Both the position numbers and the translations under genes were made by a program. A stretch of DNA of 57,862 nt from Mustelus asterias. Lineage: Eukaryota. A model generated the notes under the pieces. It worked only from the letters and a program-made list of their open reading frames with translations. It did no database searches and had not been told where the DNA came from. The stretch is taken from contig NC_135820.1 in the NCBI RefSeq assembly GCF_964213995.1, positions 3,478,139-3,536,000 on the forward strand. The letters run 5' to 3'. Position 1 is the first letter of the stretch; each line of letters opens with the position of its first letter. Positions 26,470-57,690 of the stretch are shown here, one piece after another.

Positions 26470-26586
26470 TTAAGTTCGGCTGCATTTCACATCAGCGTAC
26501 ACAGTCTCCTCCGCTTTTTCCCTTTGCGATGAAGCTTTTGCCAGTACATTGAGATCCAGCGTCGCATAAACCATCTGTTGTTCGAC
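26470..26586 (-). CDS. Nectin/PVR/CD96-family receptor, terminal exon with ITIM-like and ITSM motifs
   Basis: Acceptor tctttctgcactttttaaacag|GTC, phase 0, VEQQMVYATLDLNVLAKASSQREKAEETVYADVKCSRT-TAA. Confidence 0.88.
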   Translation of the reverse strand, partial: VEQQMVYATLDLNVLAKASSQREKAEETVYADVKCSRT

Positions 26587-26884
26587 CTGTTTAAAAAGTG
26601 CAGAAAGACACATTTCAAACTTCCAATTCACCCCAGTCAGGGACATAATGAATAATGGGAGCAGAAAGACAGTCGAATTAGCAGAGGCCGTCCTCAGGCG
26701 CTGGTTTCCGTGCCCTTCTGAAGGGCTGTCCTGGCCAACAATGTCCTCATTGGAGGAAATTAGAAAGAAAAAATGATTTTTCCTCTCTAGCCTTGACCGA
26801 GTGGGTACAAAATGTCCATAAATAGGGAAAGTTAAAGTAAATAGCAAAGTGACAATCAATGCATGATGGCCACACGAAAGCTGT

Positions 26885-27910
26885 ACTTAACACACAACGG
26901 TGAGTGTAAACACTGCACTTAACGCACACGGGTTTGTGTAATACACTGGATTTAACACACATACGGGTTAGTGTAAACACTGTATGTAACACATGGGTTA
27001 GGGTAAACACTGTATATAACACAGGCGGGTTAGTGTAAACACTGTATATAACACACAGGGGTTAGTGTAAACACTGTATATAACATACACGGGTTAGTGT
27101 AAACACTGTGTATAACACACACGGGTTAGTGTAAACACTGTATATAACACACGGGTTAGTGTAAACACTGTGTATAACACACACGGGTTAGTGTAAACAC
27201 TGTATATAACACATACGGGTTAGTGTAAACACCGTACATAACACACACGGGTTAGTGTAAACACTGTATAGAACACACAGGGGGTAGTGTAAACACTGTA
27301 TATAACACACATGGGTTAGTGTAAACACTGTGTATAACACACACGGGTTAGTGTAAACACTGTGTATAACACACACGGGTTAGTGTAAACACTGTATATA
27401 ACACACAGGGGTTAGTGTAAACACTGTATATAACATACACGGGTTAGTGTAAACACTGTGTATAACACACACGGGTTAGTGTAAACACTGTATATAACAC
27501 ACGGGTTAGTGTAAACACTGTGTATAACACACACGGGTTAGTGTAAACACTGTATATAACACATACGGGTTAGTGTAAACACCGTACATAACACACACGG
27601 GTTAGTGTAAACACTGTATAGAACACACAGGGGGTAGTGTAAACACTGTATATAACACACATGGGTTAGTGTAAACACTGTGTATAACACACACGGGTTA
27701 GTGTAAACACTGTATATAACACACACGGGTTAGTGTAAACACTGTGTATAACACACACGGGTTATTGTAAACATTGTGTATAACACACACGGGTTAGTGT
27801 AAACACTGTGTATAACACACACGGGTTATTGTAAACACTGTGTATAACACACACGGGTTAGTGTAAACACTGTATATAACACACAGGGGTTAGTGTAAAC
27901 ACTGTATAGA
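26885..27910. repeat. Tandem minisatellite, 33-35 bp unit, roughly 29 copies, with a 350-bp higher-order duplication
   Basis: Unit ACACACACGGGTTAGTGTAAACACTGT(A/G)TATA. The variant ACCGTACATA recurs at 27231 and 27581. Confidence 0.97.
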
Positions 27911-27946
27911 ACGCTTGAATCAATATGAATTCCCCATTGAACATAC

Positions 27947-27981
27947 CTCCGTTTGAAAGTTGTTGTTTTGATGGTGAACTC
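27947..27981 (-). CDS. Nectin/PVR/CD96-family receptor, 35-nt cytoplasmic mini-exon
   Basis: Acceptor ttttacacaaacag|GA, donor GAG|gtatgt, phase 1-0, (G)VHHQNNNFQTE. This is exactly the phase change needed to join the TM exon to the last exon. Confidence 0.82.
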
Positions 27982-28149
27982 CTGTTTGTGTAAAATTGGA
28001 AGAAAAACATATTTTGCTGTGATCATTTTCAAGTGTACCAATCGTTACATTCAATGTTTTCACATCATACAGTTGTGCTTTGTGTGAGCTTTCTCTTTTA
28101 CGCATTTCCCCCTTTGCTGAATGAAATTTGCTTCACAGTCCTGCTTCCC

Positions 28150-29510
28150 GCAGCCTCCCCTCTCCTAATCTCCCCTCTGCAACCTCCCCTCTCCCTGTCC
28201 CTCCTCGTCCAGCCTCCCCCACTCTCCCCTTATCCAGCCTCCCCCAACCTCCCCTCCCCCATTCTCCCCTCCTCCCACCCCCCCCACCCTCCTCTCCCCC
28301 AACCTCCCCTCCCCCACTCTCCCCTCCTCCCACCTCCCCATCCTCCTCTCCCCCAACCTCCCCTCCCCCACTCTCCCCTCCTACAGCCTCCCCACCCTCC
28401 CCTCCCCCAGTCCCTCCTCGTCCAGCCTCCCCCACTCTCCCCTCATCCAGCCTCCCCCAACCTCCCCTCCTCTCATCTCCCTACGCTCCTCTCCCCCAGC
28501 CACCCCTCCCACAGCCTCCCCTCCCCCACACTCCTCTCCCCAGCCTCCTCTCCTCCAGCCTCCTCTCCCCTCGTGTTCCCTCCCCCAGCCTCCCCTCCCC
28601 CAACCTCCTCTCCCCCAGCCTCTTCTCCCCCAGCCTCCTCTCCCCTAGTGTTCCCTCACCGAGCTGAGCCTCCCCCACCCTGCCCTTCCCCAGCCCCCTC
28701 TCCCCCAGCCACCCCTCCCCCAGCCTCCCCTCCCCCAGCCTCCTCTCCCCCAGTCCCCCCATCCCCCAGTCTCCCCTCCCCCAGTCTCCCCTCCCCCAGC
28801 CACTCCTCCCCCAGCCTCCCGTCCCCCAACCTCCTCTCTCCCAGCCTCCCCTCCCAGCCTCCCCTCCCCCAGCCTCCTCTCCCCCAGTCCCCCCCTCCCC
28901 CAGTCATCCCTCCCCCACCCTCCAATCCCCCACCCTACCCTCCCCCACCCTCCCCTCCGCCACCCTCTTCTCCCCCAGCCTCCTCTCCCCCAGCCTCCCC
29001 TCCCAGCCTCCTCTGCCTCAGACTCCGCTCCCCCAGCCTCCCCTCCCCCAGCTTCCTCCCCCCCCCCCCAGCCTCCCCTCCTCCAGCCTCCCCTTCCCGA
29101 GACTCCCGTCCCCCAGCCTCCGCTCCCGCAGCCTCCCCACCCCCGGTATCCTCTCCTCCTCCCCGCTCCCAGCCTCCCCTCCCCCAGCATCCTCCCCCCT
29201 CTCAGCCCTGCTCCCAGCCACCCTCCCCCAGCCTCCCCTCCCCCAGCCTCCCCTCCCCCGGCCTCCCCACTCCCGGTATCCTCTCCCCCTGCCCGCTCCC
29301 AGCTTCCCCTCCCCCAGCCTCCCCCAGCCTCCCCTCCCCCAGCCTCCCCTCCCCCAGCCTCCCCACTCCCGGTATCCTCTCCCCCAGCCTCCCCTCCCCC
29401 AGCCTCCCCTCTACCAGACAACCCTCCCAGACTCACCTTCCCCTACTTTCTCTTCCCCACCCTTCCCCTCCCAATCCCCCCTTCCTCAGCCTCCCCTCTC
29501 CTCGCCCCCT
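28150..29510. repeat. C-rich (G-rich on minus strand) low-complexity repeat
   Basis: Iterated CCCAGCCTCCCCTCC-like units with local duplications (e.g. CTCCCCACTCCCGGTATCCTCTCCCCC twice). Confidence 0.95.
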
Positions 29511-29956
29511 GTTTTTTTTTGTCTTATTTTACCTTTCAGGTTGCTGCCGTGCCATTCACACCTCCTCTGGATGCATCTTTTGTTGTATTTTCTTGCCCCA
29601 GCTCCACGCTCCTCAGCCCTAAATCTGCAACTCTCTTGCCGTTGAATCTCTCCAGTCTTCCCCCTTCATCAGAGACCTCAGCTTTTGTCCCTTTTCCCCC
29701 ACTGCCTCAATCCACCCATTTAAACCCATGACCAGAAGACCATAAGATTTCAAAGCAGAATTGGGCAATTGGGCCCATTGAGTTTGCTCCGCCATTCGAT
29801 CCATGGCTGATAAACTTCTCAACCCCATTCTCCTGCCTTTTCCCAGTAACCTTTGATCCCCTTACCAATTACCGATCTCTATCTTAAATGCACTCAATAG
29901 CCTGACTTCTACAGCCTTCTGTGACAATAAGTTCCACAAATTAGAAACACAGAAAC

Positions 29957-30350
29957 TTTGATTTGATTTATTACTTCACATGTATTAGTATCCGGTAAAA
30001 AGTATTGTTTCTTGCGTGCCATACAGACAAAGAATACCGTTCATAGAGAAGGAAAGGGGAGAGTGCAGAATGTCGTGTTACAGTCACAGCTCGGGTATCA
30101 AGAAAGATCAACTTAGTGCGAGGTAGGTCCATTCAAAAGTCTGCAGGGAAGCAGGGAAGAAGCTGCTCTTAAGTCGGTTGGTACGTGACCTCAGATTTTT
30201 ATATACTTTTCCCGACAGAAGAAGGTGGAAGAGAGAATAACCGGAGTGCGTGGGGTCCTTAATTATGCTGGCTGCTTTGCCGAGGCAGCGGGAAGTATAG
30301 ACAGAGTCAATGAATGGGATGCTGGTTTGCGTGATGGATTGGGCTGCAAA
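29957..30350 (-). mobile_element. Rex1/Babar-type LINE 3' fragment
   Basis: YTSRCLGKAASIIKDPTH...LFHLL...RTNRLKSSFFP. Confidence 0.85.
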
Positions 30351-34260: not shown

Positions 34261-34486
34261 TCTCAGAATGAATGCCATTCACTCCTTGTCGGACCCAACA
34301 AGTGGTAAAACTCCCAGAAGGGGGGCCGGGAGATTCACCTCATGGGTCATGTAAATTGGGTGGCATTTCATGGATACTTCATTCCCCGCCTTGCATGGTA
34401 TGCGTTTCCCGTGGCTGTGACGAACATCTAAAGAACTTCTTGGAAGCAATCAGTGCAATAATGCATGTCAAAAATTAATCATTCAC

Positions 34487-34591
34487 CTTGCATTTTTCGC
34501 TTCCTCCACAGTAACGCCACCGTCAACACAGTGACAATGAAAGCCACAAGAACAGCCGCAATAATAACCTTCTTTAAAAAGTCATCATCAC
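34487..34591 (-). CDS. Nectin/PVR/CD96-family receptor, transmembrane exon
   Basis: Acceptor tgtgtttccgcag|GT, donor G|gtgaat, 105 nt, phase 1-1. DDDFLKK-VIIAAVLVAFIVTVLTVALLW-RKRKMQ is an uncharged hydrophobic span followed by a basic stop-transfer. Not in the ORF track. Confidence 0.92.
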
Positions 34592-36727: not shown

Positions 36728-36754
36728 TGGCGTATTGCATAATTGGATACATAA

Positions 36755-37585: not shown

Positions 37586-37898
37586 AAGCACAATGTTCAG
37601 GTCAGCCAGGGTTATCAGAGCAGAGAAAACAACAGCTCCTCGAGAAGATTGGGGGTAAAGTGGGTGAAATGGTGGCTCTGAAAAGATGCCCGATGCTTTG
37701 AGTCTGTGAATCACTCATCATTGAAACAATAAATTACATTTTTATAGCGCCTCTCACAATCTCCACCAGTCTCAAAGTGAGCTCATCATTCCAATGACCT
37801 AATCTGATATTGGTTGTTGAATAATCTCTGTCACCATTGTGTCCATGAACAAAATGAAAGGAATCAGTCACTTTCTATTACAATTCATTTATAAATAC

Positions 37899-38038
37899 CT
37901 TTAATATAGTCTTTAAATATTATCTCAATTGTGGCATTTCCAGTCCCGATTGAATTGCTCATAAGACAGCTCACGTTTCCATTCATCCCGGTCTTTACGA
38001 ACACTGAAGTTTTGTTTGTCTCCACTCCTTCTGGTAAC
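37899..38038 (-). CDS. Nectin/PVR/CD96-family receptor, third Ig domain second half
   Basis: Acceptor ggcttttccaag|G, donor G|gtattt, 140 nt, phase 2-1. LPEGVETNKTSVFVKTGMNGNVSCLMSNSIGTGNATIEI supplies the second Cys and the N-x-x-G motif. Confidence 0.9.
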
Positions 38039-38244
38039 CTTGGAAAAGCCAACAACACACATTGAAGAAATGTCCTGGTGACTAAATCCAGGTGATTAAT
38101 GTTAACTCTGGGCTCGATGGAGCAGCCAACCCATTCTGCATTCCTCCAGCTTGTACCTACCACTGGTTGGACGGGTAGGGGACGTCAGGAGGGGTGTATA
38201 ATGGGGCACAAGTGATACAGATGGTATTAATAAGTTAAGGACAA

Positions 38245-39612
38245 ATGAAAGGAAATAGGAATGACCCTGGTAATTATAGGCCGGTTAGTCTTACTTCAGT
38301 GGTCGGTAAGTTAATGGAAAAGGTCCTGAGAGATATTTATGACCATTTAGAAAGATGCAGCTTAATCTGGGATCGTCAACACGGATTCGTGAAGGGTAAG
38401 TCTTGCCTCACAAATTTGATTGAATTCTTTGAGGAGGTAACTAAGTGTGTTGATGAAGGTAGGGCAGTTGATGCTGTATACATGGATTTTAGTAAGGCAT
38501 TTGATAAGGTTCCCCATGGTCGGCTCATGAAGAAAGTAAGGAGGTGTGGGATAGATTGGATAAGTAACTGGCTATCTCATAGAAGACAGAGGGTGGTGGT
38601 GGATGGAAGATTTTCAGACTGGAGACCAGTTACCAGCGGTGTACCACAGGGATCAGTGCTGGGTCCTCTTCTATTTGTGATTTCTATCAATGACTTGGAG
38701 GAGGGGGCTGAAGGGTGGATCAGTAAATTTGCTGATGACACCAAGATTGGTGGAGTAGTGGATGAGGTGGAGGGCTGTTGTAGGCTGCAAAGAGACATTG
38801 ATAGGATGCAGAGCTGGGCTGAAACATGGCAGATGGAGTTTAACCCTGATAAGTGCGAGGTGATTCATTTTGGTAGACAAATTTGAATGCAGATTACAGG
38901 GTCAACGGAGGGTTCTGAGGAATGTGGAGGAACAGAGAGATCTTGGGGTTCCTATCCATAGATCTCTGAAGGTTGCCACTCAAGTGGATAGAGCCGTGAA
39001 CAAGGCCTTTAGTGTGTTAGCGTTTATTAACAGGGGGTTTGAGTTTAAGAGCCGTGGGGTTATGCTGCAACTGTACAGGACCTTGGTGAGACCACATTTG
39101 GAATATTGTGTGCAGTTCTGGTCACCTCACTATAAGAAGGATGTGGAAGCATTGGAGAGAGTGCAGAGGAGATTTACCAGGATGCTGCCTGGTTTGGAGG
39201 GTAGGTCTAATGAGGAAAGGTTGAGGGAGCTGGGGCTTTTCTCTTTAGAGTGGAGGAGGATGAGAGGCAACTTAATAGAGGTTTATAAGGTGATGAGGGG
39301 GATAGATAGAGTGGACGTTCAGAGACTATTTCCTCGGGTGGATGTAGCTGTTACTAGGAGGCATAACTATAAGGCTCATGGTGGGAGATATCGGAGGAAT
39401 GTCCGAGGTAGGTTCTTTACTCAGAGAGTGGTTGGGGTGTGGAATGGACTGCCTGTTGTGATAGTGGAGTCGGACACTTTAGGAACTTTCAAGCGGTTAT
39501 TGGATAGGCACATGGAGCACACCAGAATGATAGGGAGTGGGATAGCTTGATCTTGGTTTCGGACAAAGCTCGGTACAACATTGAGGGCCGAAGGGCCTGT
39601 ACTGTGCTGTAC
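38245..39612 (+). mobile_element. CR1 LINE RT fragment
   Basis: ORFs 38245-38886 and 38870-39550. Confidence 0.95.
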
Positions 39613-39789
39613 TGGGTTAAATGGTGATGGAATAATCAAGATCGGAAGCACTGAGATAGAGGAACAATCTAAGTACATTCTGTCAATGATAAACATCAAG
39701 CTTACATCCACAAATACAATCACATTGGTGTCCAGATCACCAAAAACCTGTCCTGGTCCCCCCAGGCCGACACTATAGTTAAGAAAGCT

Positions 39790-40350
39790 CACCAATGCCC
39801 CTACTTTCTCAGAAGACGAAGTAAATTTGGCATGTCAGCTACGATTCTCACCAACTTTTACAGATGCACCATAGAAAGCATTCTTTCTGGTTGTGTCACA
39901 GCTTGGTATGTCTCCTGCTCTGCCCAAGGCCACAAGAAACTACAAAGGGTCTTGAACGAAGCCCAGTCCATCACTCAAACCAGCCTCCCATTCATTGACT
40001 CTGTCTACACTTCCCGCTGCCTCCGAAAAGCAGCCAGCATAATTAAGGACCCACGTACCCCGGACATTCTCTCTCCCACCTTTTTCCATTGGGAAAAGTA
40101 TACAGAAGTCTGAGGTCAAATATCAACCGACACAAAAGCAGCTTCTTCCCTGCTGCCATCAGATTTTTGAATGGTCCTACCGCGCACTAAGTTGATCTTT
40201 CTCTGCACCCTATCTATGACTGTAGCATTACATTCTGTACTTTCTTTTCCTTCTCTATGAATGGTATGCTTTTTCTGTAGAGCATCCAAGAAACAATACT
40301 TTTCACTGCATCGCAATACATGTGACAATAATAAATCAAATCAAATCAAA
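39790..40350 (+). mobile_element. Rex1/Babar-type LINE 3' fragment
   Basis: LTNFYRCTIESILSGCVTAWY...KKLQRV; tail tgacaataataaa(tcaaa)n. Confidence 0.88.
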
Positions 40351-40659
40351 TGAAAACATTTAGATTCACTCGGGTAAGAGGCATGACCAGGTGAGCTGAG
40401 TAATCTCTGTAAGTCCAACAGCATCAGCATGAGGGTGATAACATGTCTAATTCAGTCACTAGAGTGCATTGTTACACTCCATGGAGCTGAGAATTGGACT
40501 CTGAAGGGTGAAGTTGAGTGAAGAACAGCTTTTGAAATAAGCTTTTGGTGGAGGATGCTTCGAATCAGTCGGAATGACAGAAAGACAAACGAGGGGGTCA
40601 GATCAAGAGGAGGAGTTGAGGAGTCAAAAGGGTTTTTGAAAACGGTAACAGAAAGTAAG

Positions 40660-41000
40660 GGGAGGTGATGGCCCAGTGATATTGTTGCTAGATAATTAAT
40701 CCAGAAACTCAGTGAATGTTCTGGGGACCCGGGTTCGAATCCCGTCACAGCAGCTCGTGGAATCTGAATTTTTTAAACATCTGGAATTAAGAATCTGCTG
40801 ATTGCTGATTGTGGGAAAAACCCATCTGGTTCACTAATGTCCTTTAGGGAAAGAAATCTGCCGTCCTTACCTCGTCTCACCTTCATGTGACTCCAGAGCC
40901 ACAGCAATGTGGTTGACTCTCAACTGCACCTCGGGCAGCTAGGGATGGGCACTAAATGCTGGCCAGCCAGCGACACCCATGTCCAATGAATGAAAAAAAG
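40660..41000 (+). mobile_element. Second tRNA-headed SINE family (others at 9487-10143-, 25272-25630+, 55457-55690+)
   Basis: A box TGGCC(C/T)AGTG, B box GGTTCGAATCC, body aaacccatctggttcactaatgtcctttaggg, tail agggatgggca.taaatgctggccagccagcga. Confidence 0.88.
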
Positions 41001-41597
41001 ACAACTGCATTTGGAGTTTGGAAATGAAGACCTGAGAGTGTTGCCATGGCAACAATTGATGGAGGGAGTGAGGGTAAAGAGAAAGAAGGAGGGTTGGACA
41101 GGAGGATGCTATTGAGATTGGATTGTGGGAGGATTGTAGGAAACCAGAGAAGAAGGAAGACAATGTTGATGATCCTGCTGAGGGGAATGTGACAATAAGC
41201 AAAGATACAATGGGAGACCAATCTTCTACTGCCTGTTTCCCTTTATCACCCAAAGGGAAATCTGTCCCAAAGATTTCTGGCACAGAACCTCGTACAACAA
41301 ACCATCCTAATTGCTATTTGTCAGAAGTTCTCCTGCACTCTGGGCTTCTCGATAACATCTGTTGTACATCAGTCCAATCCCACCCAGGCTACTTAGCGCG
41401 CGATACACACTCTTGTATTGTGGGTGCATTTAGACCGATATTAAACTCCAATACATTAGTTTACCCCATCATCTTATTCATAAGTATTGCCTGCATGCTA
41501 ATCACACACATAATGATATCCTCCCCTTCTCCTTCCGCGCTGCCTTAACCTGCAGAGCAGATTCATTCTTAATGCTGGTTCTAGTGACCGGCCATAT

Positions 41598-41945
41598 AAA
41601 GAACAGAAAATGCCGGATCACCTCAGCAGCTCTGGCAGCGTCTGTGGAGAGAGAGAAGCAGAGTTAACATCTCGCGACCCCATGACTCTTCTCAGAGCTG
41701 AAGAGGGGTGATGGATTATACAGTGAGAGAATGTGTCCCAGAATCGGGATGGGTTGAAGTTCATGAAAGGTGTAATGGACACAAGACAAAGGGAGTGTTA
41801 ATGGCAGCATGAAGGACTAAAGAAGGTGCGGGTAGTGGCAAAGATAGCAGAATATGTGAATCGGAGAACAAAGGTCAGTGCTTATTGAAAGCAAAGCTGA
41901 TGAACAAGTGACAGGTGGCCCTGTGGTGAGAGGGAGAGGGAGTGG
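41598..41945 (-). mobile_element. Degenerate pseudo-LTR of a probable second Penelope-like family (related piece at 33180-33250 on plus)
   Basis: aacagaaaatgccgga...cagcagctctggcagcgtctgtggagagagag...gttaac with a decayed CTGA..GAA hammerhead-like core on minus. Family assignment is from memory. Confidence 0.5.
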
Positions 41946-42527
41946 TTGATTTGGGCCAGTAACAAGTCATGTTGGTTCTGCTCACTAAGCGGTTAAGTGG
42001 CCAAAGGACACATAACCCTGAAATACAAATGTTTTTTTTGGGTTTAGTTGTATTTTGTGGGTGTGACATTTCACTGGGCTGAAAGTGGCAACTCAGATTG
42101 TTGCATTTTTTTTTCCAACTACCCACACAATGAAACACAAACCTCCAGTTGTGTTTGTTTTATTGTTTAATCTAGTTGGTGTTCCTGGAGCTGAAGGTGC
42201 AATCTGATGATGATGAGTTTAGGAAATGACCTCGCTCTTCTCTGACAATCTATTTCCACCTGGTCACAGGATCCAGATTCTCAGTTCACTGTTTCTCATT
42301 GAAACATACATCCAGCGGCAGCCAGTGAAGATTCAGCTCTGACTCCCGTGTGTGTCCAACACATTTTCACCAATGTTGCCCTGGAAACAGCGACATGTGG
42401 AGAGAGGTTGCCGGGATAGACCTGTTTTCCCAGTTTAATGGCATGTCACAATTCTGAACCATCCATTATCTCCACAGGATCGGAAATATACACAATGAAA
42501 TTCTCAATGAATTCAGCACATGTTTAC

Positions 42528-42630
42528 CCTCGCCAAGAATAGGTTCCTGCTGGAGGATTGGCTTCCGCGACACATTTGAGGCTGACACCCCCGTTGCCAT
42601 CGTCATGTATTATGGTCACTTCTGGTGGAT
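42528..42630 (-). CDS. Nectin/PVR/CD96-family receptor, third Ig domain first half
   Basis: Acceptor ttcccccatag|AT, donor GG|gtaaac, 103 nt, phase 1-2. (Y)PPEVTI...LKCVAEANPPAGTYSWR matches the start of nectin/PVR domain 3. Confidence 0.93.
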
Positions 42631-44088
42631 CTATGGGGGAAATGATTGTGTTCATGTGGTCAGTGCCTCCAGTATAGCAAAGAATCCAACTTTGTATTTG
42701 TGTCAAAGTGGCCACAGCAACAAGAAACTATATTAACCATAGAAACATAGAATCATACAGTGCAGGAGGAAGCCATTTGGCCCATCGAGCTTGCACTGAC
42801 AACAATCGCACCCAGGCCTTATCCCTGTAACTCCACATATTTACCCCACGAGTCCCACTGACACTAAGGGGCAATTTAACATGGCCAATCCATCTTACTT
42901 GCTCATCTTTGGACTGTGGGAAGAAACCAGAGCTCCTGGATGAACTATGCAATCTTAAAATATCAAAAAGTGATTGCTTTCAATGTCGAATGAACCACAA
43001 GCATGTGGTAGAACACAGGAGGTGGCACGGTCGCGCAGTGGTTAGCACTGCTGCCTCACAGTGCCAGGGACCCAGGTTCAATTCCGGCCTCGGGTCTCTG
43101 TCTGTGTGGTTCGCATGTTCTCCCCCTGTCCGCGTGGGTTTCCTCCGGGTGCTCCAGTTTCCTCCCACAGTCCGAAAGATGTGCTGGTTAGCTGCATTGG
43201 ACATGCTAAATTCTCCCTCAGTGTACCCGAACAGGCGCCGGACTGTGGTGACTAGGAGATTTTCACGGTGACTCCTTTGCAGTGTTAATGTAAGCCTACT
43301 TGTGACACTAATAAATAACTCCACACTGTTTGTGTGGAGTTTGCACATTCTCCCCGTGTCTGCATGGGTTTACTCCGGGTGCTCCAGTTTCCTCCCACAC
43401 TCCAAAGATGCTCGAGTTAGGTTGATTGGCCATGCTAAACTGCCCCTTGGTGTCAGGGGGATTAACACGTGGGGTGACGGGGATTGGGCCTGGGTGGGAT
43501 TGTGGTCTGTGCAGGCTCGATGGGCTGAATGGCTTCCTTCTGCACTGTACGGTTTGTCTGATTCTATAAAACATCCATAGTTTAACATATCCCCTGGAAT
43601 GTGTGACTTCCACACAAGGGGAAGTAGATATTTCGGAAGACCACCGCCTGGAGGTTCCCCTCCAAGCAACTTTCCATCCTGACTGGTAAATATATCGGCC
43701 GTCCCTTCACTGTCGCTGGGTCAAAATCTTGGAACTCCCTCCTGAACAGCGTTGTGGGCAAACCTATACCTCAGAGACTTCAGCGGTTCAAGAAGGCAGC
43801 TCACCACCATCTTCTCAAGGGGCAATTAGGGATGGGCGATCCTGATCTGCCCACATTCCATAAATGAATTTTTAAAGACTTGTTCTGACAACTGAAGTCT
43901 CAGCCACCTCACAGCATCAGGGACTCCAGTCCGATTCCAGCCTCAGGAGTTTGTCTGTGTGGAATCTATTTGTGCGGAGTCTGCATGTTTTCCCTGTGTC
44001 TGTGTGGGTTTCCTTCAGGAGCTCCGTTTTCTTCCCACAGTCCCAAGATGCGCGGGTTAAGTGGATTGGCCGTGCCAAATTGACACTC

Positions 44089-44216
44089 TGGGCGGGATTT
44101 TACTGGCACGTCTGCCCAAGGTTCGTACGATCCCACCTGAGGCCAGTAGAGAATGCCGATCTCCGAGCCTCGCCCGCCCCCAAATCAGGGCTGGCATGCT
44201 GGTAAAATTCTGGCCT
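44089..44216. mobile_element. Short MITE with related termini (similar short elements at 8528-8647, 18048-18178, 47740-47937, 54628-54752)
   Basis: GGGCGGGATTTTAC...GTAAAATTCTGGCC; interrupts an HE1-type SINE; shares cccacc(t/c)gaggcca..gagaatgccg with 8565-8592. Confidence 0.7.
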
Positions 44217-44698
44217 TCGTGTCAGGGAGAATAGCAGGGTAAATATATGGGGTTATGGGGATGTGGCCTGGGTGGGATTGTTCTCAGTGCAGGTTCGATG
44301 GACTGAATGGCCTCTTTCTGCACTGCAGGGATTCTATGATTCTCGGATAATGTCCATTTTGCACTACAACAACCTGCTACATTGATGTAGCAATTTTCAT
44401 ATTGTACTCCAAATTGTAATTTCTGAAAAAGAGTGATTTAATAACTGTACGTTGATCAGATAGTTGCTTAAATCTGCGCTCTGGAACAATATGTTGGTCT
44501 TTGACTTATTTAATATATTCAGTTGGGGTTTACAAATGGACGGGTGGTGAAATGAAACAAAACCGCTCGTTCCGAACCTCCCAGAAACCCTGTCATTGCA
44601 GATACCCAGAAACACAATGAGATAAATTTAATCCTGTTCCAATTGAGCAGGAGTTTGCTATCGTGCGTCTCTAATTGGATTGAACTATTTGTCTTTGC

Positions 44699-46522
44699 AC
44701 ATAAGAACATAAGAACTAGTAGCAGGAGTAGGCCATCTGGCCCCTCGAGCCTGCTCCGCCATTCAGTAAGATCATGGCTGACCTTTTTGTGGACTCAGCT
44801 CCACTTACCCGCCCGCTCACCATAACCCTTAATTCCTTGACTGTTCATAAATTTATCTATCCTTGCCTTAAAAACATTCGATGAGGTAGCCTCAACTGCT
44901 TCACTGGGCAGGGAATTCCACAGATTCACAACCCTTTGTGTGAAGAAGTTACTCCTCAACTCAGTCCTAAATCTGCTTCCCCTTATTTTAAGGCTATGCC
45001 CCCTAGTTCTAGTTTCACCCGCCAGTGGAAACAACTTCCCTACTTCTATCTTATCTATTCCCTTCATAATCTTATATGTTTTTATAAGATTTCCCCTCAT
45101 TCTTCCGAATTCCAATGAGTATAGCCCCAGTCTACTCAGTCTCTCCTCATAAGCCAACCCTCTCTACTCCAGAATCAACCTAGTGAATCTCCTCTGCACC
45201 CCCTCCAGTGCCAGTATATCCTTTCTCAAGTAAGGAGACCAAAGCTGTACACAGTACTCCAGGTGTGGCCTCACCAGCACCTTATACAGCTGCAACATAA
45301 CCTCGCTGTTTTTAAACTCCATCCCTCTAGCAATGAAGGACAAAGTTCCATTTGCCTTCTTAATTACCTGCTGCACCTGCAAACCAACTCCTTGAGATTC
45401 CTGCACAAGGACACCCAGGTCCCTCTGCACAGCAGCATGCTGCAATTTTTTACCATATAAATAATATTCCATTTTGCTGTTATTCCTACCAAAATGGATG
45501 ACCTCACATTTACCAACATTGTACTCCATCTGCCAGACCCTCGCCCACTCACTTAGACTATCTCTATCCCTTTGCAGACTTTCAGCGTCCCCTGCACACT
45601 TTACTCTGCCACTCATCTTAGTGTCATCTGTGAATTTTGACACACTACTCTTGGTCCCCAACTCCAAATCATCTATGTAAATCGTAAACACTGATCCCTG
45701 AGGCACACCACTAGTCACTGATCGCCAACCAGAAAAATACCCATTTACCCCCACTCTTTGCTTTCTGTTAGTTAACCAATCCTCTATCCATGCTATTACA
45801 TTACCTGTAACACCGTGCACCTTTATCTTATGTCGCAGTCTTTGGTGCAGCCCCTTGTCAAATGCCTTCTGGAAATCCAGATACACCACATCCACAGGTT
45901 CCCCATTGTCCACTGCACATGTAATGTTCTCAAAGAATTCCAGCACACTAGTCAAACATGACCTGCCCTTCATGAACCCATGCTGCGTCTTACCAATGGG
46001 ACAATTTATATCCGGATGTCTCGCTATTTCTTCCTTGATGGTAGATTCAAGCATTTTCCCTCCTACAGAAGTTAAGCTAACTGGCCTATTGTTACCTGCC
46101 TTTTGTCTACCTCCTTTTTTAAACAGTGGCGTCACATTTGCTGTTTTTCAATCTGCGGGAACCACCCCAGAGTCCAGCGAATTTTGGTAAATTACCACCA
46201 GTGCATTTGCTATTCCCCCGCCATCTCTTTTAACACCCTGGGATGCATTCCATCAGGACCAGGAGACTTGTCTACCTTTAGTCCCATTAACTTGCCCAAC
46301 ACTACCTCTTTCGTGATAATGATAGTTTCTAGTTCCTCACCTGCCATAGCCTTCCTGTCATCAATTTTTGGCATGTTATTTGTGTCTTCCACTGTGAAGA
46401 CCGACACAAAATACCTGTTCAATGCCTCAGCCATTTTCTCATTTCCAGTTATTACATCCCCTTTCTCGTCCTCTAAAGGACCCATGTTTACTTTCGCCAC
46501 TCTTTTTCGTTTTATATATTTG
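44699..46522 (-). mobile_element. CR1 LINE fragment starting ~30 bp after the domain-2 exon donor
   Basis: ORFs 46210-46500, 45164-46135, 44795-45157; (TTCTTATG) tail. Confidence 0.95.
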
Positions 46523-46551
46523 TAGAAAATATATTTGTACAGGGGACTTAC

Positions 46552-46845
46552 AGAGGATGGACAGTTTTATTGTCAACGGAATGGTGCTCTGTGATGCTGG
46601 GTGGGAGATAACACAAGTCAATTCTTGACCATCAGTGGATCGAGTGGGTGCCACCTTGTACAGGCTGGTGACAGTTGTTGTTCCATTGTCGCTTTTATTC
46701 TGGGTTGTTGTATAGTTTCCATGGAGATTGGAAATCCAGCTGATCCCGGCTGGCGGGTTCCCATTGGCTGAAACACATCTTGCCACAGGCACTTCTGAAA
46801 GGCCAGCTGTTGCAGGAATCGGTGTCGCTGAGTTGATGGGATTTA
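46552..46845 (-). CDS. Nectin/PVR/CD96-family receptor, second Ig (C-type) exon
   Basis: Acceptor tctcccccaag|TA, donor T|gtaagt, 294 nt, phase 1-1. VARCVSANGNPPAGISW...TVTSLYKVAPTRSTDGQELTCVISHP is typical of nectin domain 2. Confidence 0.95.
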
Positions 46846-47210
46846 CTTGGGGGAGATTAACAAGAAATAGATTCAATGTCAGTTTCAAACATGACAATAT
46901 CTTGTAATTAATATAGAACAGAAACATGAAACAGATGAATATTTCTATGTCCCAAAGTGTCAAATAGCCCAAAGGTATGATGGATATGTTATAGGAAGAG
47001 AGAGAAACAAAGAGGGAAAGTGAGAAAGAGGGAAGAAGACATTGTAAAACATAAGGAATGAGCAGGAATATAATAAGTAATGTGATTGTTTTCAATTTGG
47101 AAACATCCTTTACCCTTACTGATTAAAATCTTTCTATCTCAGCCTTGAACACACTTAATGACCCAGTCTCGACAGCCCTCTGCGGTTTCAAAGTCAGTTT
47201 CAAACATATC

Positions 47211-47258
47211 GTTTCTGCTCCAGACGAGTTACGTTTGTAACTCGTCTGGAGCAGAAAC
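47211..47258. repeat. Perfect 22-bp inverted repeat with 4-nt loop
   Basis: GTTTCTGCTCCAGACGAGTTAC-gttt-GTAACTCGTCTGGAGCAGAAAC. Confidence 0.97.
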
Positions 47259-47289
47259 ATGAGTTAATGTCTCTTTAGGTAAATGTGGG

Positions 47290-50025
47290 TATTATTCAGC
47301 ACAAATTAACTGAATTAACGACAGAAATTGAGGTTAATGGGTGTGATCTTATAGCCATTATAGAGACATGGTTACAGGGAGATAAAGCTGGGAGCTATGT
47401 GACAGAAGTATGCAAAATGTTGGAAGGATAGGCAGGAAGGAAAGAGTAATGGGGTCGCTTTGTTAGTATGAGATGGAATAAGTACAAAAGCAAGAAAGGA
47501 TCTCCACCCATCCATTTGGGTGGAGGTACGAAATAACAAGGGGAAGAACACACCGGTGGGAGTAGTCTATAGGCCCCCTAGTGGTAGTGATACTGTCGGA
47601 CAGAGAATAAATCAGGAGATAATGAGGGCATGTAAAAATGTAAAAGAAAAGTGCATCAATCGTGGCTGACTTTAATTTTTATGTGGGTTGCAAAATTCAA
47701 ATTGGCAGAGGCAGCCATGAGGAAGAATATGTACAAAAGGTGAGATTCTCTGGCTTCCGAGCTACGTGTTTCCCGCCAGTGGGAGGGACCATGTTGTTTG
47801 TTAGCGGTGGGATTCTCTGTCGTCGATGGGGATTCACATTGACATCATCCCACACCGGCAGGAAACCCCCGGGCAGGTGAGTGCAGCCAGCGGGACTGGA
47901 GAATCCCGCCAGCGTGAACAACTGGAGAATTCTGGCTAATGTATTGGGGACAGTTTCCGAGTACAATATGTGTTGGATACAACCAGGGGTATTTTGGATC
48001 TGGTAATGTGCAATGAGGCTGATTTAATGAACAGTCTCAGAGTAAAAGGTCCCAGAGAAAAGAGTGACCATGACATGGTAGAACTTAGCATTCAGTTTGA
48101 GAATGAAGACCTTGGGTCAAAAACAACTGTGCCAAACTTAAGTAAGTGTAATTACAAAGAAGTTGGGACAGAGCTGACTGGAGTGGACTGGGAAAGGAGC
48201 CAATCAGAAAAGTTGGCTGATCAGCAATGGCAGTCATTCATAGAATCATAGAATCCCCACAGTGCAGAATGAAGCCATTCAGCCCATCGAGTCTGCACCG
48301 ACCACAATCCCACCCAGGCCCTATTCCCATAACTCCATGCATTTACCCCAACTGGACCACCTGACACTCAGGGTCAATTTAGCATGGTCAATCCACCTAA
48401 CCTCACACATTGTGAGAGGAAACTGAGAAGGAGGCCATTCGGCCCATCGAGTCTGCACTGACAACAATCCCACCCCAGGCCCTGTCCCCGAAACCCCACA
48501 TACTTACCCCCCTAATCCCTCTAAAATACATATCCTGGGACACTAAGGGGCAATTTAGCATGGCCAATCAACCTAGCCCGCACATCTTTGCACTGTGGGA
48601 GGAAACTGGAGCACCCGGAGGAAACCCACACAGGCACGGGGAAAATATTCAAACTCCACACAGACAGTGACCCAAGCCAGGAATTGAACCTGGGTCCCTG
48701 GCGCTGTGAGGCAGCAGTGCTAACCACCGTGTCACTGTGCCACCAATAGGCGAAAATAATCTGTAACTCTCAACAAAGATATATCCCAGTGAAGAAGGAT
48801 TCTAGGAAGGGGATAAAAGAACATATCTCAGAATCGAACAAAGAAGATAAGGATAGTATTAAAGTTAAAGAAAAAAGCAGAAAATATTGCAAAAATTAGT
48901 CAGAGGATTGGGAAAGTTTCAAAAGCCAAAAAAGATGACCAAAAATAACAGAGGGAAAAGATAAACTGTGACGGTAAACGAGCAAATAATATAACTCTGT
49001 ATGTTATCCAGAAAGAAATATATATTAAAAAATCAGTCATTGGAGATTATTTAAATATATAAAAAGGAAGAGAGAGAGAGCAAAGTGAGCAGAGCGCGCT
49101 TCGAGAATCAAACTGGGGAAATAATAATGGGTGACCAGAAAATGATAGATCAGTTAAATAAATACTTAACACCAGTCTTACATAGAACCATCGACAGGTT
49201 ACAGCACAGAAGAAGGCCATTTGGCCTATCTTGCCCATGCCAGGCCAAAGACACTCATGTGTCCATTCTGATCCCACCTTCCTGCACTTGGCCCATATCC
49301 CTGTAGCTTACAGCACTTCAGATGCAACTCCAGGTATATTTTAAAAGAGTTTAGGGTCTCTGCATCCACCACCAACTCAGGCAGCGAATTCCACAGACCC
49401 ACCACCTTCTGCATAAGGAAGTTCTTCCTCAACTCCCCTTCTGCCACTTATCTTGAATCTATGTCTGCTGGTTCTAGGGGACAACTCTCTACAATGCTAC
49501 AATGCACTAATTGCATTCAAATATATGACAGAATGAAGGGACAAAAGGGGCAGGATGGGAGAGGAAATAATACAATAGCTATCAATAGAGAGAAAGCACG
49601 AGGGAAACTAATGGACCTAAAGGTCGATAAGTCCCCTGGACTTGATGGGCTGCACCTTAGGGTATTAAAGGAAGTATCTGCAGAGATAGTAGATGCATTG
49701 TTAGCAATCTTCCAAGAATCCTTGAAGTCTTGAAAAATCCCAGAGGATTGGAAAACTGCCAATGTAACGTCCCTATAGAAAGGGTGGGAGACAAAACAAC
49801 AAGTATCTAAAGCCTAACATCTGTCACTGGGATAATGTCAGAGTTCGTTATAAAGGATGTAATAGCAGAGCATTTAAAAATACATCATATAATCAAGCAG
49901 TCAGCATGGCTTCATGAAGGGAAAACCATGCCTGAAAAATTTCTTTCTGGTGAGGATTGAGCAGGATAGATATAGGGAAACCAGTAGATGTAATATATTT
50001 GGATTTTCACAAAATATTCAATGAG
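47290..50025 (+). mobile_element. Old degenerate CR1 LINE (APE to start of RT) with nested SINEs, MITE and a CR1 tail
   Basis: ILDLVMCNE...KSDHDMVE (47970-48251), KVDKSPGLDGLHLRVLKE (49461-49733), cagcatggcttcatgaagg at ~49902. Confidence 0.85.
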
Positions 50026-50027
50026 AT

Positions 50028-51810
50028 CATTGAGTCATAGAGATTTACAGCATGGAAACAGGCCCTTCGGCCCAGCTTGACTATCCCACCCCCTTTTTGT
50101 AACCCCTGAGCTGGTCACAATTGCCCACGTTTGGCCATATCTCCCTATACCCATCTTACCCATGTAACTGTCTGAACGCTTTTCTAAAAACAAAATTGTA
50201 CCCACCTCTACTACTACCTCTGGCAGCTTGTTCTACACACTCACCACCTCTGTCTGAAAAAATTGCCCCTCTGGACCCTTTTGTATCTCTCCCCTCTCAC
50301 CTTGACCCTATGCCCTCTAGTTTTAGACTCCCCTACCGTTGGGAAAAGATGTTGACTATCTAGCTGATCTATGCCCCTCATTATTTTACAGACCTCTATA
50401 AGATCACCCTGATCATCCCATTGCTGTCCACTATGCTCCAGAGAAAAAGTCCCAGTCTATCCAGCCTCTCCTTATAACTCAAACCATCAAGTCTGGGTAG
50501 CATCTTTTCTGCACTCTTTCTAGTTAATAATATCCTTTCTATAATTGGGTGACCAGAACTGTACACAGCATTCCAAGTGTGGCCTGACCAATGGCTTGTA
50601 CAACTTCAACAAGACATCCCAACTTCTGTATTCAATGTTCTGACCAATGAAAGTAAGCATGCTGAATGCCTTCTTCACCACTCTGTCCACTTGTGACTCC
50701 ACTTTCAAAGAGCTATGAACATGTACCCCTAGATCTCTTTGTTCTGTAACTCTCCCCAACACCCTACCATTAACTGAGTAAGTCCTGCCCTGGTTCAATC
50801 TACCAAAATGCATCACCCTGCATTTATCTAAATTAAACTCCATCTGCCATTCGTCAGCCCACTGGCCCAATTGATCAAGATCCCATTGCGATCCAAGATA
50901 ACTTTCTTCACTGTCCATTATGCCACCAATCTTGGTGTCATCTGCAAACTTACTAACCATGCCTCCTATATTCTCATCCAGACCATTAATATGAATGATA
51001 AATAACAGTGGACCCACCACCGATCCCTGAGGTACACCTCTCGTCACAGGCCTCCAGCTTGAAAAACAACCCTCTACAACACCCTCTGGCTTCTGTCATC
51101 AAGCCAATTTCGTATCCATTTAGCTACCTCACCCTGGATCCCGTGAGATTTAACCTTACCTTCTTGGTTACCCCTTCAAAAAATTCAATCAAATTTGTGA
51201 GACATGATTTTCCACTCATAAAGCCATGCTGACTGTCCCTAATCAGTTCTTGCATCTCTAAATGACTGTAGATCCTGTCTCTCAAAATACCTTCCAACAA
51301 CTTCCCCTCCACAGATGTGAGGCTCACTGGCCTGTTGTTCCCAGGCTTTTCCCTGCAGCCCTTTTTAAACAAAGGCACAACATTTGCCACTCTCCAATCT
51401 AAGGCACCTCACCCGTGACTATCGATGATTCAAATATCTCTGCTAGGGGACCCGCAATTTCCTCCCTAGCTTCCCACAATGTCCTGGGATACACTTCATC
51501 AGGTCCCGGGGATTTATCTATCTTGATGCACTTTAAGACTGCCAGCCTCTCCCTCTCTGTAATATGTACACTCCTCAAGACATCACTATTTATTTCCCCA
51601 AATTCCCTAATATCCATGCTTTTCTCAACAGTAAATTGAGAAATATTCATTTAGGATCTCACCCATCTCTTGTGGATCTGCACATAGATGACCTTGCTGA
51701 TCCTTAAGAAGCCCTACTCTCTCCCTTGTTACTCTTTTGCCCTTTATGTATTTGAAGAAGCTCTTTGGATTCTCCTTTGCCTTATCTTCCAAAACAATCT
51801 CGTGTCCCCT
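50028..51810 (-). mobile_element. CR1 LINE fragment with internal deletion
   Basis: ORFs 51399-51650, 51124-51390, 50520-51047. Confidence 0.94.
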
Positions 51811-51819
51811 TTTTGGATA

Positions 51820-52483
51820 GCGTTATAGTCAGAGCGAGGGTGCGGAGAAAGATCAACTTAATATCAGGTAGGTCCATTCAAAAGTCCGATGGCAGCAGGG
51901 AAGAAGCTGTTCTTGAGTCAGTCAGTACATGACCTCAGACAATGGTTAGCACTGCTGCCTCACAGCGCCAGGGACCCGCGTTTGATTCCCAACTTGGGTC
52001 ACTGGCTGTGCGGAGTTTGTACGTTCTCCCCGTGTCAGCGTGGGTTTCTTTCGGGTGCTTTGGTTTCCTCCCACAGTCCAAGGATGTGTGGGTTAGGTGC
52101 ATTGGCCGTGCTAAATTGCTCCTTAGTGTCAGGGGGGCTCACAAGGGTAAATATATTGGGTTATGTGGATAGAGCCTGGATGGGATTGTGGTCGGTGCAG
52201 ACTTGATGGGCCGAATGACCTCCTTCTGCACTGTAGGCTTCTATGATTTTGTATCTTTTTCCCAACGGAAGAAGGTGGAAGAGAGTATGTCTGGGGTACG
52301 AGGGGTCTTTGGTTATGCTGACTACTTTTCTGAGGCTGTGGGAAGTGTAGACAGAGTCAATGAATGGGTGGTTGGTTTGCGTGATGGACTGGGCTACGTT
52401 CACAACCCTTTGTAATTTCTTGCGGACTTGGGCAGAGCAGGAGCCATACCAAGCTGTGATACATTTGGAAAGAATGCTTTTGA
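51820..52483 (-). mobile_element. Rex1/Babar-type fragment split by an HE1-type SINE (51940-52245)
   Basis: SILSKCITAWYGSCSAQVRKKLQRVV in ORF 52161-52514. Confidence 0.82.
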
Positions 52484-52662
52484 TGGGGGGATAGGGGGTG
52501 TGCTTCGGGACCAAGGGAAATGTTCAGAGCAGAGGGGTTTCTAGAGGTGAATTAGAAATGTAGCAAGGTGTGTGAAAAACTGGGCTGGCTGGGTTTCTGA
52601 AACCATCGATAGATGTTAGGAGGAAGCTGTGCAATGGTATCAAAACACTGGTGATATTTCAG

Positions 52663-53606
52663 AGTAAGAAGCCTCACAACACCAGGTTAAAGTCCAACAG
52701 GTTTATTTGGTATTTTAGAACGTAGAACATAGAACAGTACAGCACAGAACAGGCCCTTCGGCCCACGATGTTGTGCCGAGCTTTATCTGAAACCAAGATC
52801 AAGCTATCCCACTCCCTATCATCCTGGTGTGCTCCATGTGCCTATCCAATAACCGCTTAAATGTTCCTAAAGTGTCTGACTCCACTATCACTGCAGGCAG
52901 TCCATTCCACACCCCAACCACTCTCTGCGTAAAAAACCTACCTCTGATATCCTCCCTATATCTCCCACAATGATCCCTATAGTTATGCCCCCTTGTAATA
53001 GCTCCATCCACCCGAGGAAATAGTCTTTGAATGTTCACTCTATCTATCCCCTTCATCATTTTATAAACCTCTATTAAGTCTCCCCTCAACGTCCTCCGCT
53101 CCAGAGAGAACAACCCTAGCTCCCTCAACCTTTCCTCATAAGACCTACCCTCCAAACCAGGCAGCATCCTGGTAAATCTCCTCTGCACTCTTTCCAGCGC
53201 TTCCACATCCTGCTTACAGTGAGGTGACCAGAACTGCACACAATATTCCAAATGTGGTCTCACCAAGGTCCTGTACAGTTGCAGCATAACCCCACGGCTC
53301 TTAAACTCCAACCCCCTGTTAATAAAAGCTAACACACTATAGGCCTTCTTCACAGCTCTATCCACTTGAGTGGCAACCTTTAGAGATCTGTGGATATGGA
53401 CCCCAAGATCTCTCTGTTCCTCCACAGTCTTCAGAACCCTACCTTTGACCCTGTAATCCACATTTAAATTAGTCCTACCAAAATGAATCACCACTATCAT
53501 TGCTCAACAATCATTGCTACCAGATAAACCTGTTGGACTTTAACCTGGTGTTGTGAGACTTCTTATTGTGCTTACCCCAGTCCAACACCGGCATCTCCAC
53601 ATCATG
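52663..53606. mobile_element. Tiny inverted Penelope pseudo-LTR remnants (52663-52712 and 53515-53606) flanking a CR1 insertion
   Basis: acaccaggttaaagtccaacagg and its reverse complement, the same terminus as the 19431 and 55692 elements. Confidence 0.8.
52717..53491 (-). mobile_element. CR1 LINE 3' fragment, same subfamily as 2084-4140
   Basis: ORF 52799-53500 nearly identical to the C-terminus of ORF 2165-3763. Confidence 0.96.
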
Positions 53607-54860
53607 CATATTTCAGAGTTCAGACTGAGACATCTCTGTGGTGGAAACTTAATCTCGTCAGCAGTAATGCGATCTTTAGCCTGGGCCTGTGTCACTGGGA
53701 GGTGTGATCTGGGTCCTCGCCTCCGGCTGAAGTAAAAGCTTTGGTGCCTGCTATGGGGAAGGGGCAGGTGACATGGGCAACACAATGGCACAGTGGTTAG
53801 CACTGTTGCTTCACAGCACCAGGGACCTGAGTTTGATTCCTGGCTTGAGTCACTGCCTGTGCGGATTCTGCACATTCTCCCCGTGTCTGCGTGGGTTTCC
53901 TCAGGGTGCTCCGGTTTCCTCCCACAGTCCACAGATGTGCAGGCCATGCTAAAGTGCCTCGTAGTGTCCCGAGATGTGTATGTCAGAGGGATCAGCGGCG
54001 TAAATGTGTGGGGCTGTGGGGTTAGGGCCTGGGGTGGGATTGTTGTCGGTGCAGACTCGATGGGGCGAATGTCCTCCTTCTGCACATAAGGATTCTATCA
54101 CACTTCAGACCAGGACACTATGATGATCTACATGCTAAAGGACAAGTCAGAGCAATTAATCTGTTGCAAGGCAGGACGATGGAAGTGAATGAATTGGGGA
54201 CAGATTGAGAGCGAGTGTCACAGAGCTGTGTTAGTTTGAAGAAGACAGGGGAGGACCTTTGTCTCTGACAGAGGAAGTGAAGTGATTTGGAAAGTAACAT
54301 GGGCTAAGTGTAGAGGTGCCTCCCAAAATTCTCCAGTTCTGGGGATTTCCCTCACCTCACGTTCCCGTCAGTTAGAGATTGCCAGAGATTGATTGCTCAG
54401 AGCAGTCCACCACTGGGTTCCTGTTACAGGATGTCACTGCCAGTAACTGGAGAAACCAAACATGACGCACATCAATCCATTTTAAAACAACCCTCCCAAC
54501 TTCCAATCCCAACTGCTCAGCAAGCACTCACCATTAATAACTCGATGATAACACCATGAGCTGGAATGTGACTGGATTCAAACATTAGAATGATGCAGCA
54601 ATATTCTGATGATGATTGCAGAGATAATTGCCGGAATTGTACCGCCTCGCCCACCCGATTCTGGGGCAAGCGAGGCTGGCAGGACGGCATTCCCTGTTGG
54701 CCTTGGGCGGGATCTTACAAACCTCGGGCGGGCGAGGTTGTAAAATACCGACCATTAAGTTTTCACCAGGACGCACAATCCAATACACTGTCCCCATTCC
54801 CCCCCCTCTCTTATTACACTTACCCTCACACAGCAACAACACTCCTGGGAAAATACATAC

Positions 54861-55199
54861 CTAGAACTGTCAAATTCATTGTTTCTTCATGATTTCCCTC
54901 AGGGAATAAACTGAGCTCACACGTATACATTCCCTCATCCTGCATCTGCAAAGACTTTAATAGAATGGATCCATCCAATAGGGAATTGTTTCTGAAAACT
55001 ATCCGACTGGAATCATGTGGGTTTAAGTTGTTGATCCCATGCTTATGGTGATATGCAATGAAGGAAATATTTTCAGCATCTTTCTTCCAGGCAATTTGCA
55101 CCAATGTTGTGTTGTTTCCTGTTCCCTGGCACGGCAGTAGCACCTCCGCCCCAGCAAAAGCAGTGAGGGTCACTTCTGTGACCTGGTTCTTTGCTGTAA
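54861..55199 (-). CDS. Nectin/PVR/CD96-family receptor, IgV exon (first coding exon visible)
   Basis: Acceptor ttgttgttcgtgcag|TT, donor G|gtatgt, 339 nt, phase 1-1. Encodes VLLPC...VQIAW...IAYHHKHG...DGSILLKSLQMQDEGMYTCELSLFPEG...LTVL, a V-set domain with PVR-family-like motifs. An alternative in-frame AG lies 6 nt downstream. Confidence 0.93.
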
Positions 55200-57560: not shown

Positions 57561-57614
57561 CCAAGACAGATAGATAGGCTGAGGGGTATGCAGAGAGATG
57601 GATATGCAGATAGC

Positions 57615-57630
57615 TAGATAGATAGATAGG

Positions 57631-57690
<60 letters not shown>
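57615..57690. repeat. (GATA)n microsatellite
   Basis: Direct agat/gata iteration. Confidence 0.97.

Follow-up and report, generated by a model that had tools for sequence, protein, structure and literature searches.

Does a nectin-type ectodomain joined to an inhibitory-looking tail in a shark genome mark an ordinary adhesion protein, or an immune receptor with partners of opposite sign? The question is raised by a gene on the minus strand, here called gene A, in a repeat-rich 57,862-nucleotide stretch of the shark Mustelus asterias (positions 3478139-3536000 of contig NC_135820.1, G000:C20), the whole of which is referred to as the window. [quoted passage not shown] Because the ITIM-like plus ITSM tail is conserved and the paralogues are clustered, gene A is likely, with a probability of roughly 65%, to be the inhibitory partner within a nectin-type family of paired receptors in sharks, in which ligand-driven damping through SHP phosphatases would oppose ITAM partners on the same ligand.

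Splice prediction from the sequence gave seven minus-strand exons with AG/GT ends and phases 1,1,2,1,1,0. The exons in the window encode 376 residues and a stop, and a leader exon 11.7 kb past the window edge (G000:C20:3547692-3547641) brings the whole protein to 394 aa. The product has three Ig cysteine pairs, 11 N-x-S/T sequons, two of them overlapping, and a transmembrane (TM) segment with no charged residue (best 19-mer hydropathy 3.09). All of the seven phase-compatible exons, sequons and uncharged TM segment listed in a preliminary description of this DNA were found. Pfam recognised V-set, CD80-like C2-set_2 and Ig_3 domains, giving the order V-C-C. The solved structures closest in sequence to the V exon were nectin-1, then nectin-3 and -4, with PVR, CD226 and CD96 lower. 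Nectin-1 was also the top fold match of an AlphaFold2 model of V (mean predicted local distance difference test score, pLDDT, 85), and CD96 and TIGIT fell below nectin-1 both by sequence and by fold.

The two tail tyrosines, Y345 and Y368, are 23 residues apart on the last exon, and the TM and tail exons of gene A are present as a single copy in 658 kb of continuous sequence. Classical nectins end in the afadin-binding C-terminal motif (E/A)xYV. This end was absent from 21/21 tails of the family and neighbour genes. The possibility was considered that the TM exon is joined instead to another last exon ending in xYV; in the 43.5 kb downstream of it, two stops were preceded by xYV, neither with E or A at -3. 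The absence of an afadin motif, proposed in the preliminary description, therefore held over the 43.5 kb checked. The same description had called MVYATL non-canonical because of M at Y-2, and this was borne out as well. The reported preference of the N-SH2 domain of SHP-2 allows M at Y-2 and A at Y+1, tandem ITIM/ITSM motifs engage both SH2 domains of SHP-2, and jawed vertebrates retain the SHP-1/-2 binding sites (PMC12151841).

Conservation of the tail, which the preliminary description had put forward as a check, was evaluated in other sharks by searches with the catshark orthologue. In the inhibitory type, represented by 10 sequences from 9 species, all 10 retained both tyrosines together with the ITSM consensus, and seven had a strict ITIM. 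The remaining three had T (two sequences) or, in gene A, M at Y-2. The spacing of the tyrosines was 23 in 7/10 and 24-26 in the others. Since both tyrosines are kept in 10/10 sequences, the tail motifs are not a product of chance, and the ITIM-like plus ITSM tail first noticed in gene A is a conserved one.

Gene A heads a 0.45-Mb cluster on C20. When the genome was searched with the V exon, 15 V-like matches were obtained, and seven V exons with 58-100% identity all lay in C20:3.53-3.97 Mb. In the continuous 658-kb sequence, four paralogues (B, D, E and F) share a different uncharged TM segment followed by three tail exons, the first with YVN, the second ending in Y-M and the third completing YxxL-x7-YxxL/I. 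Their ITAM, YxxL/I-x7-YxxL/I, is thus split by a phase-0 intron. In our own assembly of the exons, the frame of B and F is open from leader to ITAM, and so is that of D once the shifted acceptor from NCBI model P0023 is adopted. The NCBI models of B and F end before the ITAM. Within about 60 kb on either side of the cluster, no other gene was recognisable by eye.

The activating type is likewise widespread. Eight full-length sequences were recovered from six species, with a strict ITAM in seven (the remaining one carries V at its first +3 position) and YxN in 7/8. ITAM tails are conserved across 7 shark species, grouped in a single old clade apart from the inhibitory tails. Carcharodon also has V-TM-ITAM forms in which V is 88-97% identical to that of its inhibitory gene; one of these, P0205, is a single-V ITAM form whose V is 97% identical to that of its inhibitory partner. 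The family is present in both major shark lineages. Rays gave matches solely to the type of gene N, the downstream neighbour described below, in searches unable to show absence.

Within a species, inhibitory and ITAM members have nearly the same ectodomain. In the five closest pairs, V was 89-97%, C1 95-100% and C2 89-99% identical, but the TM and tail of the same pairs were just 25-39% identical. By comparison, the V domain of gene A was 47-61% identical to those of the eight inhibitory-type orthologues compared. In an ectodomain tree of 21 rows, from which V-only and broken genes were omitted, the inhibitory and ITAM types were sisters in 5/5 species having both (bootstrap 99-100). The tree of TM and tail (FastTree) was split by tail type with a support of 99. 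As the ectodomains pair within species and the tails group by type, the ectodomains of this paired-receptor family are under concerted evolution. At the DNA level, the block that gene A shares with B and E runs from the leader to window position 37748, which is after the last ectodomain exon and before the TM exon, and none was found beyond. A single clade of all ITAM-type ectodomains was rejected in a separate test (approximately unbiased test, p-AU 4.9e-60), the tested group having been named after the first tree was seen.

Gene A is most likely a CEACAM1/CEACAM3 design on a nectin scaffold, and not a CEACAM, a classical nectin or a PVR orthologue. Proteins of the CEACAM family have a Cys-less N domain with A/B constant domains, unlike the shark ectodomain, which is a nectin V-C-C with a disulfide in V. 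The shark family, known from sequence, also differs from CEACAM1/CEACAM3 in that the inhibitory tail has two exons here and three there, and positive-selection tests were not significant here. However, the CEACAM1/CEACAM3 system of mammals, Xenopus and reptiles has the same arrangement of one ITIM plus ITSM member with both motifs on the last exon (PMC5112662, PMC2832619, PMC13278318), a number of members whose intrinsic ITAM is interrupted by a phase-0 intron and preceded by an upstream YxN, species-specific clustering of ectodomains, and single-V ITAM forms such as, here, Carcharodon P0205. Similar ectodomains, opposing tail motifs, clustered genes and within-species concerted evolution are all found in the shark family, and the same features define the CEACAM paired receptors (PMC5112662, PMC2832619). 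Among cartilaginous fish, the skate MDIRs are also multigene activating and inhibitory Ig receptors (PMC3031540, cited second-hand), but they resemble CD300/TREM/pIgR and not nectins.

The mechanism proposed is that a ligand would bind the C-C'-C''/FG face of the gene A product, Src-family kinases would phosphorylate both tail tyrosines, and the tandem SH2 domains of SHP-2 or SHP-1 would be recruited, damping activation. ITAMs recruit Syk-family kinases. The ligand would also be bound by the ITAM copies, whose signals would pass through Syk-family kinases and Grb2, the latter being a partner of the YxN motif (the motif itself appears in PMC5112662 and PMC2832619). More speculatively, a pathogen might exploit the inhibitory receptor, with the ITAM copies serving as decoys that trigger uptake, as has been proposed for CEACAM1/CEACAM3, and repeated conversion or re-duplication might keep the ectodomains alike under such use. 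In the CEACAM papers, the same pattern is read as pathogen use of an inhibitory receptor, countered by decoys (PMC5112662, PMC2832619). The variation of the V domain is consistent with this. Between A and B, 11 of 13 V differences fall in the 43 of 110 sites assigned to the front face (C-C'-C''/FG; p 0.0005), and among the orthologues the front face is the more variable (3.5 vs 2.6 residues per column, p 0.002). In the C1 exons of A, B and E there were 5-12 replacement vs 0 silent changes. Given that variation is greater in the binding face than in the framework, decoys against a pathogen would be the most likely explanation of the pairing.

Several observations weigh against the paired-receptor interpretation and its decoy extension. 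The ratio of nonsynonymous to synonymous substitution rates (dN/dS) was significantly above 1 in 0/10 whole-V and 0/10 front-face pairs of the five full-length genes; it was 0.43-0.84 over the whole of V and about 1 on the front face, and one C1 pair, B-E, gave a selection p of 0.026, uncorrected. Since dN/dS was never significantly above 1 in the V comparisons, relaxed constraint explains the pattern of variation equally well, and the front-face partition was made after the alignment had been seen. The data demonstrate within-species pairing, not positive selection. The block shared with B and E comprises the whole ectodomain and its introns, as a fresh duplication would give, and homogenisation of the whole ectodomain is unlike that of the Xenopus CEACAMs, in which it involves the V exon only. 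Paralogues B, D and F share the orientation of gene A. Some members of the cluster look broken: the V exon of E is 338 nt long and frameshifted by a one-base deletion, and there are also two incomplete genes and five orphan tail cassettes. Most of the other-shark sequences are predicted gene models from NCBI or UniRef. Finally, the nectin/PVR family has an AX6G lock and a T(F/Y)P key in V (PMC10486284), and gene A has a degenerate lock, I-X6-G, with I in place of A, and L-F-P at the key position, where F-P is retained. Nectin-type binding is uncertain for gene A because of this lock.

The strongest alternative, though we consider it unlikely, is a host-ligand checkpoint pair, in which the inhibitory and ITAM members would recognise a self nectin displayed by target cells, in the manner of TIGIT vs CD226, with no pathogen involved. 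A self-nectin ligand has to be taken seriously, since all 10/10 inhibitory-type V domains retain the aromatic key, F-P; AX6G is found in 4/10. The absence of significant selection on V and the proximity of nectin-2 tail exons and a conserved nectin-type neighbour also agree with it. TIGIT, CD96, PVRIG and CD226 resemble the shark family in having a nectin-related V domain and opposing signalling inside one family, but they are divergent single genes and not near-identical within-species pairs; TIGIT, moreover, has a single IgV (PMC10486284). A conserved host ligand would predict a conserved face, whereas the front face is the more variable part. The key is altered in two ITAM paralogues, D lacking both F and P and F lacking P, and species-specific homogenisation fits a changing ligand.

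Another reading makes the gene A product a PVR-like protein of adhesion or motility that bears an ITIM tail; the ITAM copies would then be mostly duplicates in decay, in no functional pairing. There is a precedent in mammalian CD155-alpha, which joins a nectin ectodomain to an SHP-2-binding ITIM and has no afadin motif (PMC7037299), and the broken copies in the cluster would agree with decay. PVR and gene A share the V-C-C ectodomain, a tyrosine-based inhibitory motif and a place in the nectin-2-related branch. However, gene A has two motifs, including an ITSM, and ITAM partners; ITAM tails are conserved in 7 shark species as one old clade, which decay would not preserve; and orthology with PVR is rejected. 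We therefore regard this explanation as improbable. In a tree of 25 rows the family makes up a single clade (100/100), which is placed with the N genes and the nectin-2/PVR clade (98/98) and away from nectin-1, -3 and -4, and PVR (P0054, its identity confirmed against PDB) groups with mammalian nectin-2 (100/100). A clade of the family with PVR was rejected (p-AU 5.6e-52). This tree is a rebuild of a quick tree of 41 rows with long branches, omitting ten redundant rows of the family and six that were long or partial. The identities of PVR and one nectin-2 row were verified against PDB, and five rows (one nectin-2, two nectin-3-type and two nectin-4-type) and P0102 are either labelled from tail motifs or unlabelled. 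The preliminary description had placed gene A, as something other than an ordinary adhesion nectin, on the PVR/CD96/TIGIT axis and had suggested per-domain phylogenies as a check. Its nectin ectodomain without an afadin motif stands, and a role in a PVR/TIGIT-like ligand axis may hold, but PVR orthology is not supported, and in the nectin/PVR part of the phylogeny the family is a clade of its own. Nectins 1-4 share the fold and domain order, with nectin-1 D1 the best match in sequence and structure, but gene A differs from them in having no C-terminal xYV, in its degenerate lock and in belonging to a fast-changing multigene cluster.

One database protein, P0001 (XP_078093165.1, Mustelus asterias, 817 aa, labelled uncharacterised), has the exact V exon of gene A. 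It uses the gene A exons up to the second tyrosine motif and is then spliced, from a GT donor within the last exon through a small exon near window position 68, into the downstream gene; we take it to be an NCBI model that fuses gene A to its neighbour. That the locus truly makes this 817-aa read-through, with loss of the ITSM +3 residue, is very improbable despite the donor and the small exon, since such a product would carry two TM segments with an ectodomain left in the cytoplasm, a separate leader exon exists for the downstream gene, the orthologue models of 8 other species end shortly after the ITSM, and contigs of runs X4 and X6 (from other organisms, and RNA only by guess) continue through the stop position of gene A. 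These two contigs cover the last exon, start at its acceptor and extend past the stop. Among 40 of the 149 rows of differences between X4/X6 and gene A, none of which lay in the position range of the first tyrosine, there was no difference at the stop or the T-V-Y codons. The comparison with these runs took in the last two exons of gene A and the 3' flank, where contigs of X10 and X1 did not include the last exon and the 35-nt exon was uncovered; the rows available contained no splice joint, which speaks neither for nor against the junctions. A run search listed no RNA source for Mustelus asterias.

The origin of the tails may lie in the neighbourhood. The gene A cluster sits between TM and tail exons of nectin-2 (C20:2.87 Mb) and a CEACAM-like cluster (C20:5.65-6.02 Mb). 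In Heptranchias, the contigs bearing nectin-2 and the orthologue are equal in length. In a CEACAM-like gene at a distance of 2 Mb, the ITAM exon matches that of the paralogues in length and phases (44 nt, 0-2), with 20-21 of 44 nt identical (hidden Markov model E 0.006) and a YVN stretch upstream. This suggests, but does not prove, that tail exons are common to the nectin-type and CEACAM-like genes, because the ITAM itself constrains the match. No ITIM/ITSM exon like that of gene A was found in 200 kb of the CEACAM-like cluster, which is part of it only. The synteny marker CLPTM1 lies on C24 and C2, not on C20, and the match to human 19q13 thus rests on the nectin-2 tail and CEACAM-like exons only. 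Ectodomain exons of nectin-2 were not found in 90 kb upstream, a stretch that includes a 200-N gap. We tentatively suggest that sharks may have built a pathogen-decoy system from nectin-2-related ectodomain exons and signalling exons shared with the CEACAM cluster, the inhibitory receptor serving a nectin-binding shark pathogen for entry and the ITAM copies being phagocytic traps; this is a possibility rather than an expectation. On that reading, the unverified turtle models P0073 and P0209, in which nectin-2 V-C is followed by a CEACAM ITAM tail, would be an independent repeat. Herpes-, morbilli- and picornaviruses use nectins as receptors for entry (PDB titles).

Few innate paired-receptor families have been described in cartilaginous fish, and the present one carries its own ITAM, with no adaptor. 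It has been hidden by annotation, as the preliminary description expected when it foresaw a label of only nectin-like: the labels found are nectin-1-like or uncharacterised, one model is fused and two lack the ITAM. No description of such a nectin-type paired family was found in a literature search that had most subscription journals outside its reach, which is not proof, and the combination of nectin, elasmobranch and immunoreceptor tyrosine-based gave no match. If the paired-receptor reading is true, the decoy logic of CEACAMs would be carried over, through an inhibitory and activating pair built on nectins, to another scaffold within one chromosomal neighbourhood. The family also supplies concrete reagents for finding the ligand and the carrier cells.

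Table. Features of gene A and its relatives (window positions unless C20 is given)
Feature	Position	Strand	Remarks
IgV exon	54861..55199	-	339 nt, phase 1-1; one Cys pair; key F-P kept, lock I for A
Second Ig domain exon	46552..46845	-	294 nt; CD80-like C2-set_2, nectin D2 type
Third Ig domain, first half	42528..42630	-	103 nt, phase 1-2
Third Ig domain, second half	37899..38038	-	140 nt, phase 2-1
TM exon, uncharged	34487..34591	-	single copy in 658-kb region
First cytoplasmic exon	27947..27981	-	35 nt, phase 1-0
Last exon, both tyrosine motifs and stop	26470..26586	-	phase 0
ITIM-like motif MVYATL	26557..26574	-	Tyr codon 26568-26566 = Y345
ITSM TVYADV	26488..26505	-	Tyr codon 26499-26497 = Y368
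Candidate poly(A) signal AATAAA	26407..26412	-	58 nt after stop
Block shared with paralogues B and E, in-window part	37748..57731	-	segments of ~89-97% DNA identity, introns included
ITAM-type paralogues	C20: B 3.63-3.60, D 3.80-3.77, E 3.82-3.85, F 3.98-3.95 Mb		

A conserved gene of nectin type, the downstream neighbour N (G000:C20:3469049-3441894, L066-L069) has orthologues in both skate and electric ray; its V is 41% identical to that of gene A. The N tail is related to the inhibitory type, yet one or both tyrosines are lost in each species. A 27.8-kb unplaced contig (G000:C3700; L004, L122-L124) carries V (66%), C1 and C2a exons belonging to an allele or a further member of the family, and no TM or tail was found on it. 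In the CEACAM-like cluster (L086-L105) an N-like exon lacking Cys lies at 5940209 and is accompanied by paired constant exons; a TM is encoded near 5888880, and an ITAM exon is present at 5882610. In painted turtle, models P0073, P0208 and P0209 have nectin-2 V-C exons followed by a TM and a YxN plus ITAM tail that in part shows 75-87% identity to turtle CEACAMs; they represent either real exon shuffling or a model artefact.

Elsewhere in the genome there are nectin-1-like (C68) and nectin-3-like (C10) loci, labelled by sequence resemblance. The latter lies with two more V exons, also labelled by resemblance, at G000:C10:36.4-37.4 Mb (L011, L013, L014), a group that we take to resemble the nectin-3/CD200/CD96 region. 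A single nectin-type V exon at C20:9.18-9.19 Mb (L012, L119-L121) is 43% identical to the N-terminal gene of the Heptranchias model P0011, a V-TM-ITIM gene fused into that model. A candidate last exon with two tyrosine motifs lies nearby at 9178629, and from its sequence this gene is possibly a PVRIG/TIGIT-like inhibitory receptor. ITAM-pattern tails are also seen in other nectin-like or Ig proteins (P0079, P0161, P0059 and P0153); P0079, placed by the quick tree within the nectin-2 clade, bears two of these patterns.

An Rfam search of the window gave 0 matches. Many LINE (long interspersed element) reverse-transcriptase fragments and SINE (short interspersed element)-like repeats occur at 13969-15432, 38239-39547, 45167-46147, 52802-53503 and other positions of the window, and repeats that are high-copy in the 658-kb region cover about half of it. 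At 26881-27912, in the intron that separates the cytoplasmic exons of gene A, lies a 32-bp minisatellite of 32 copies with 90% matches.

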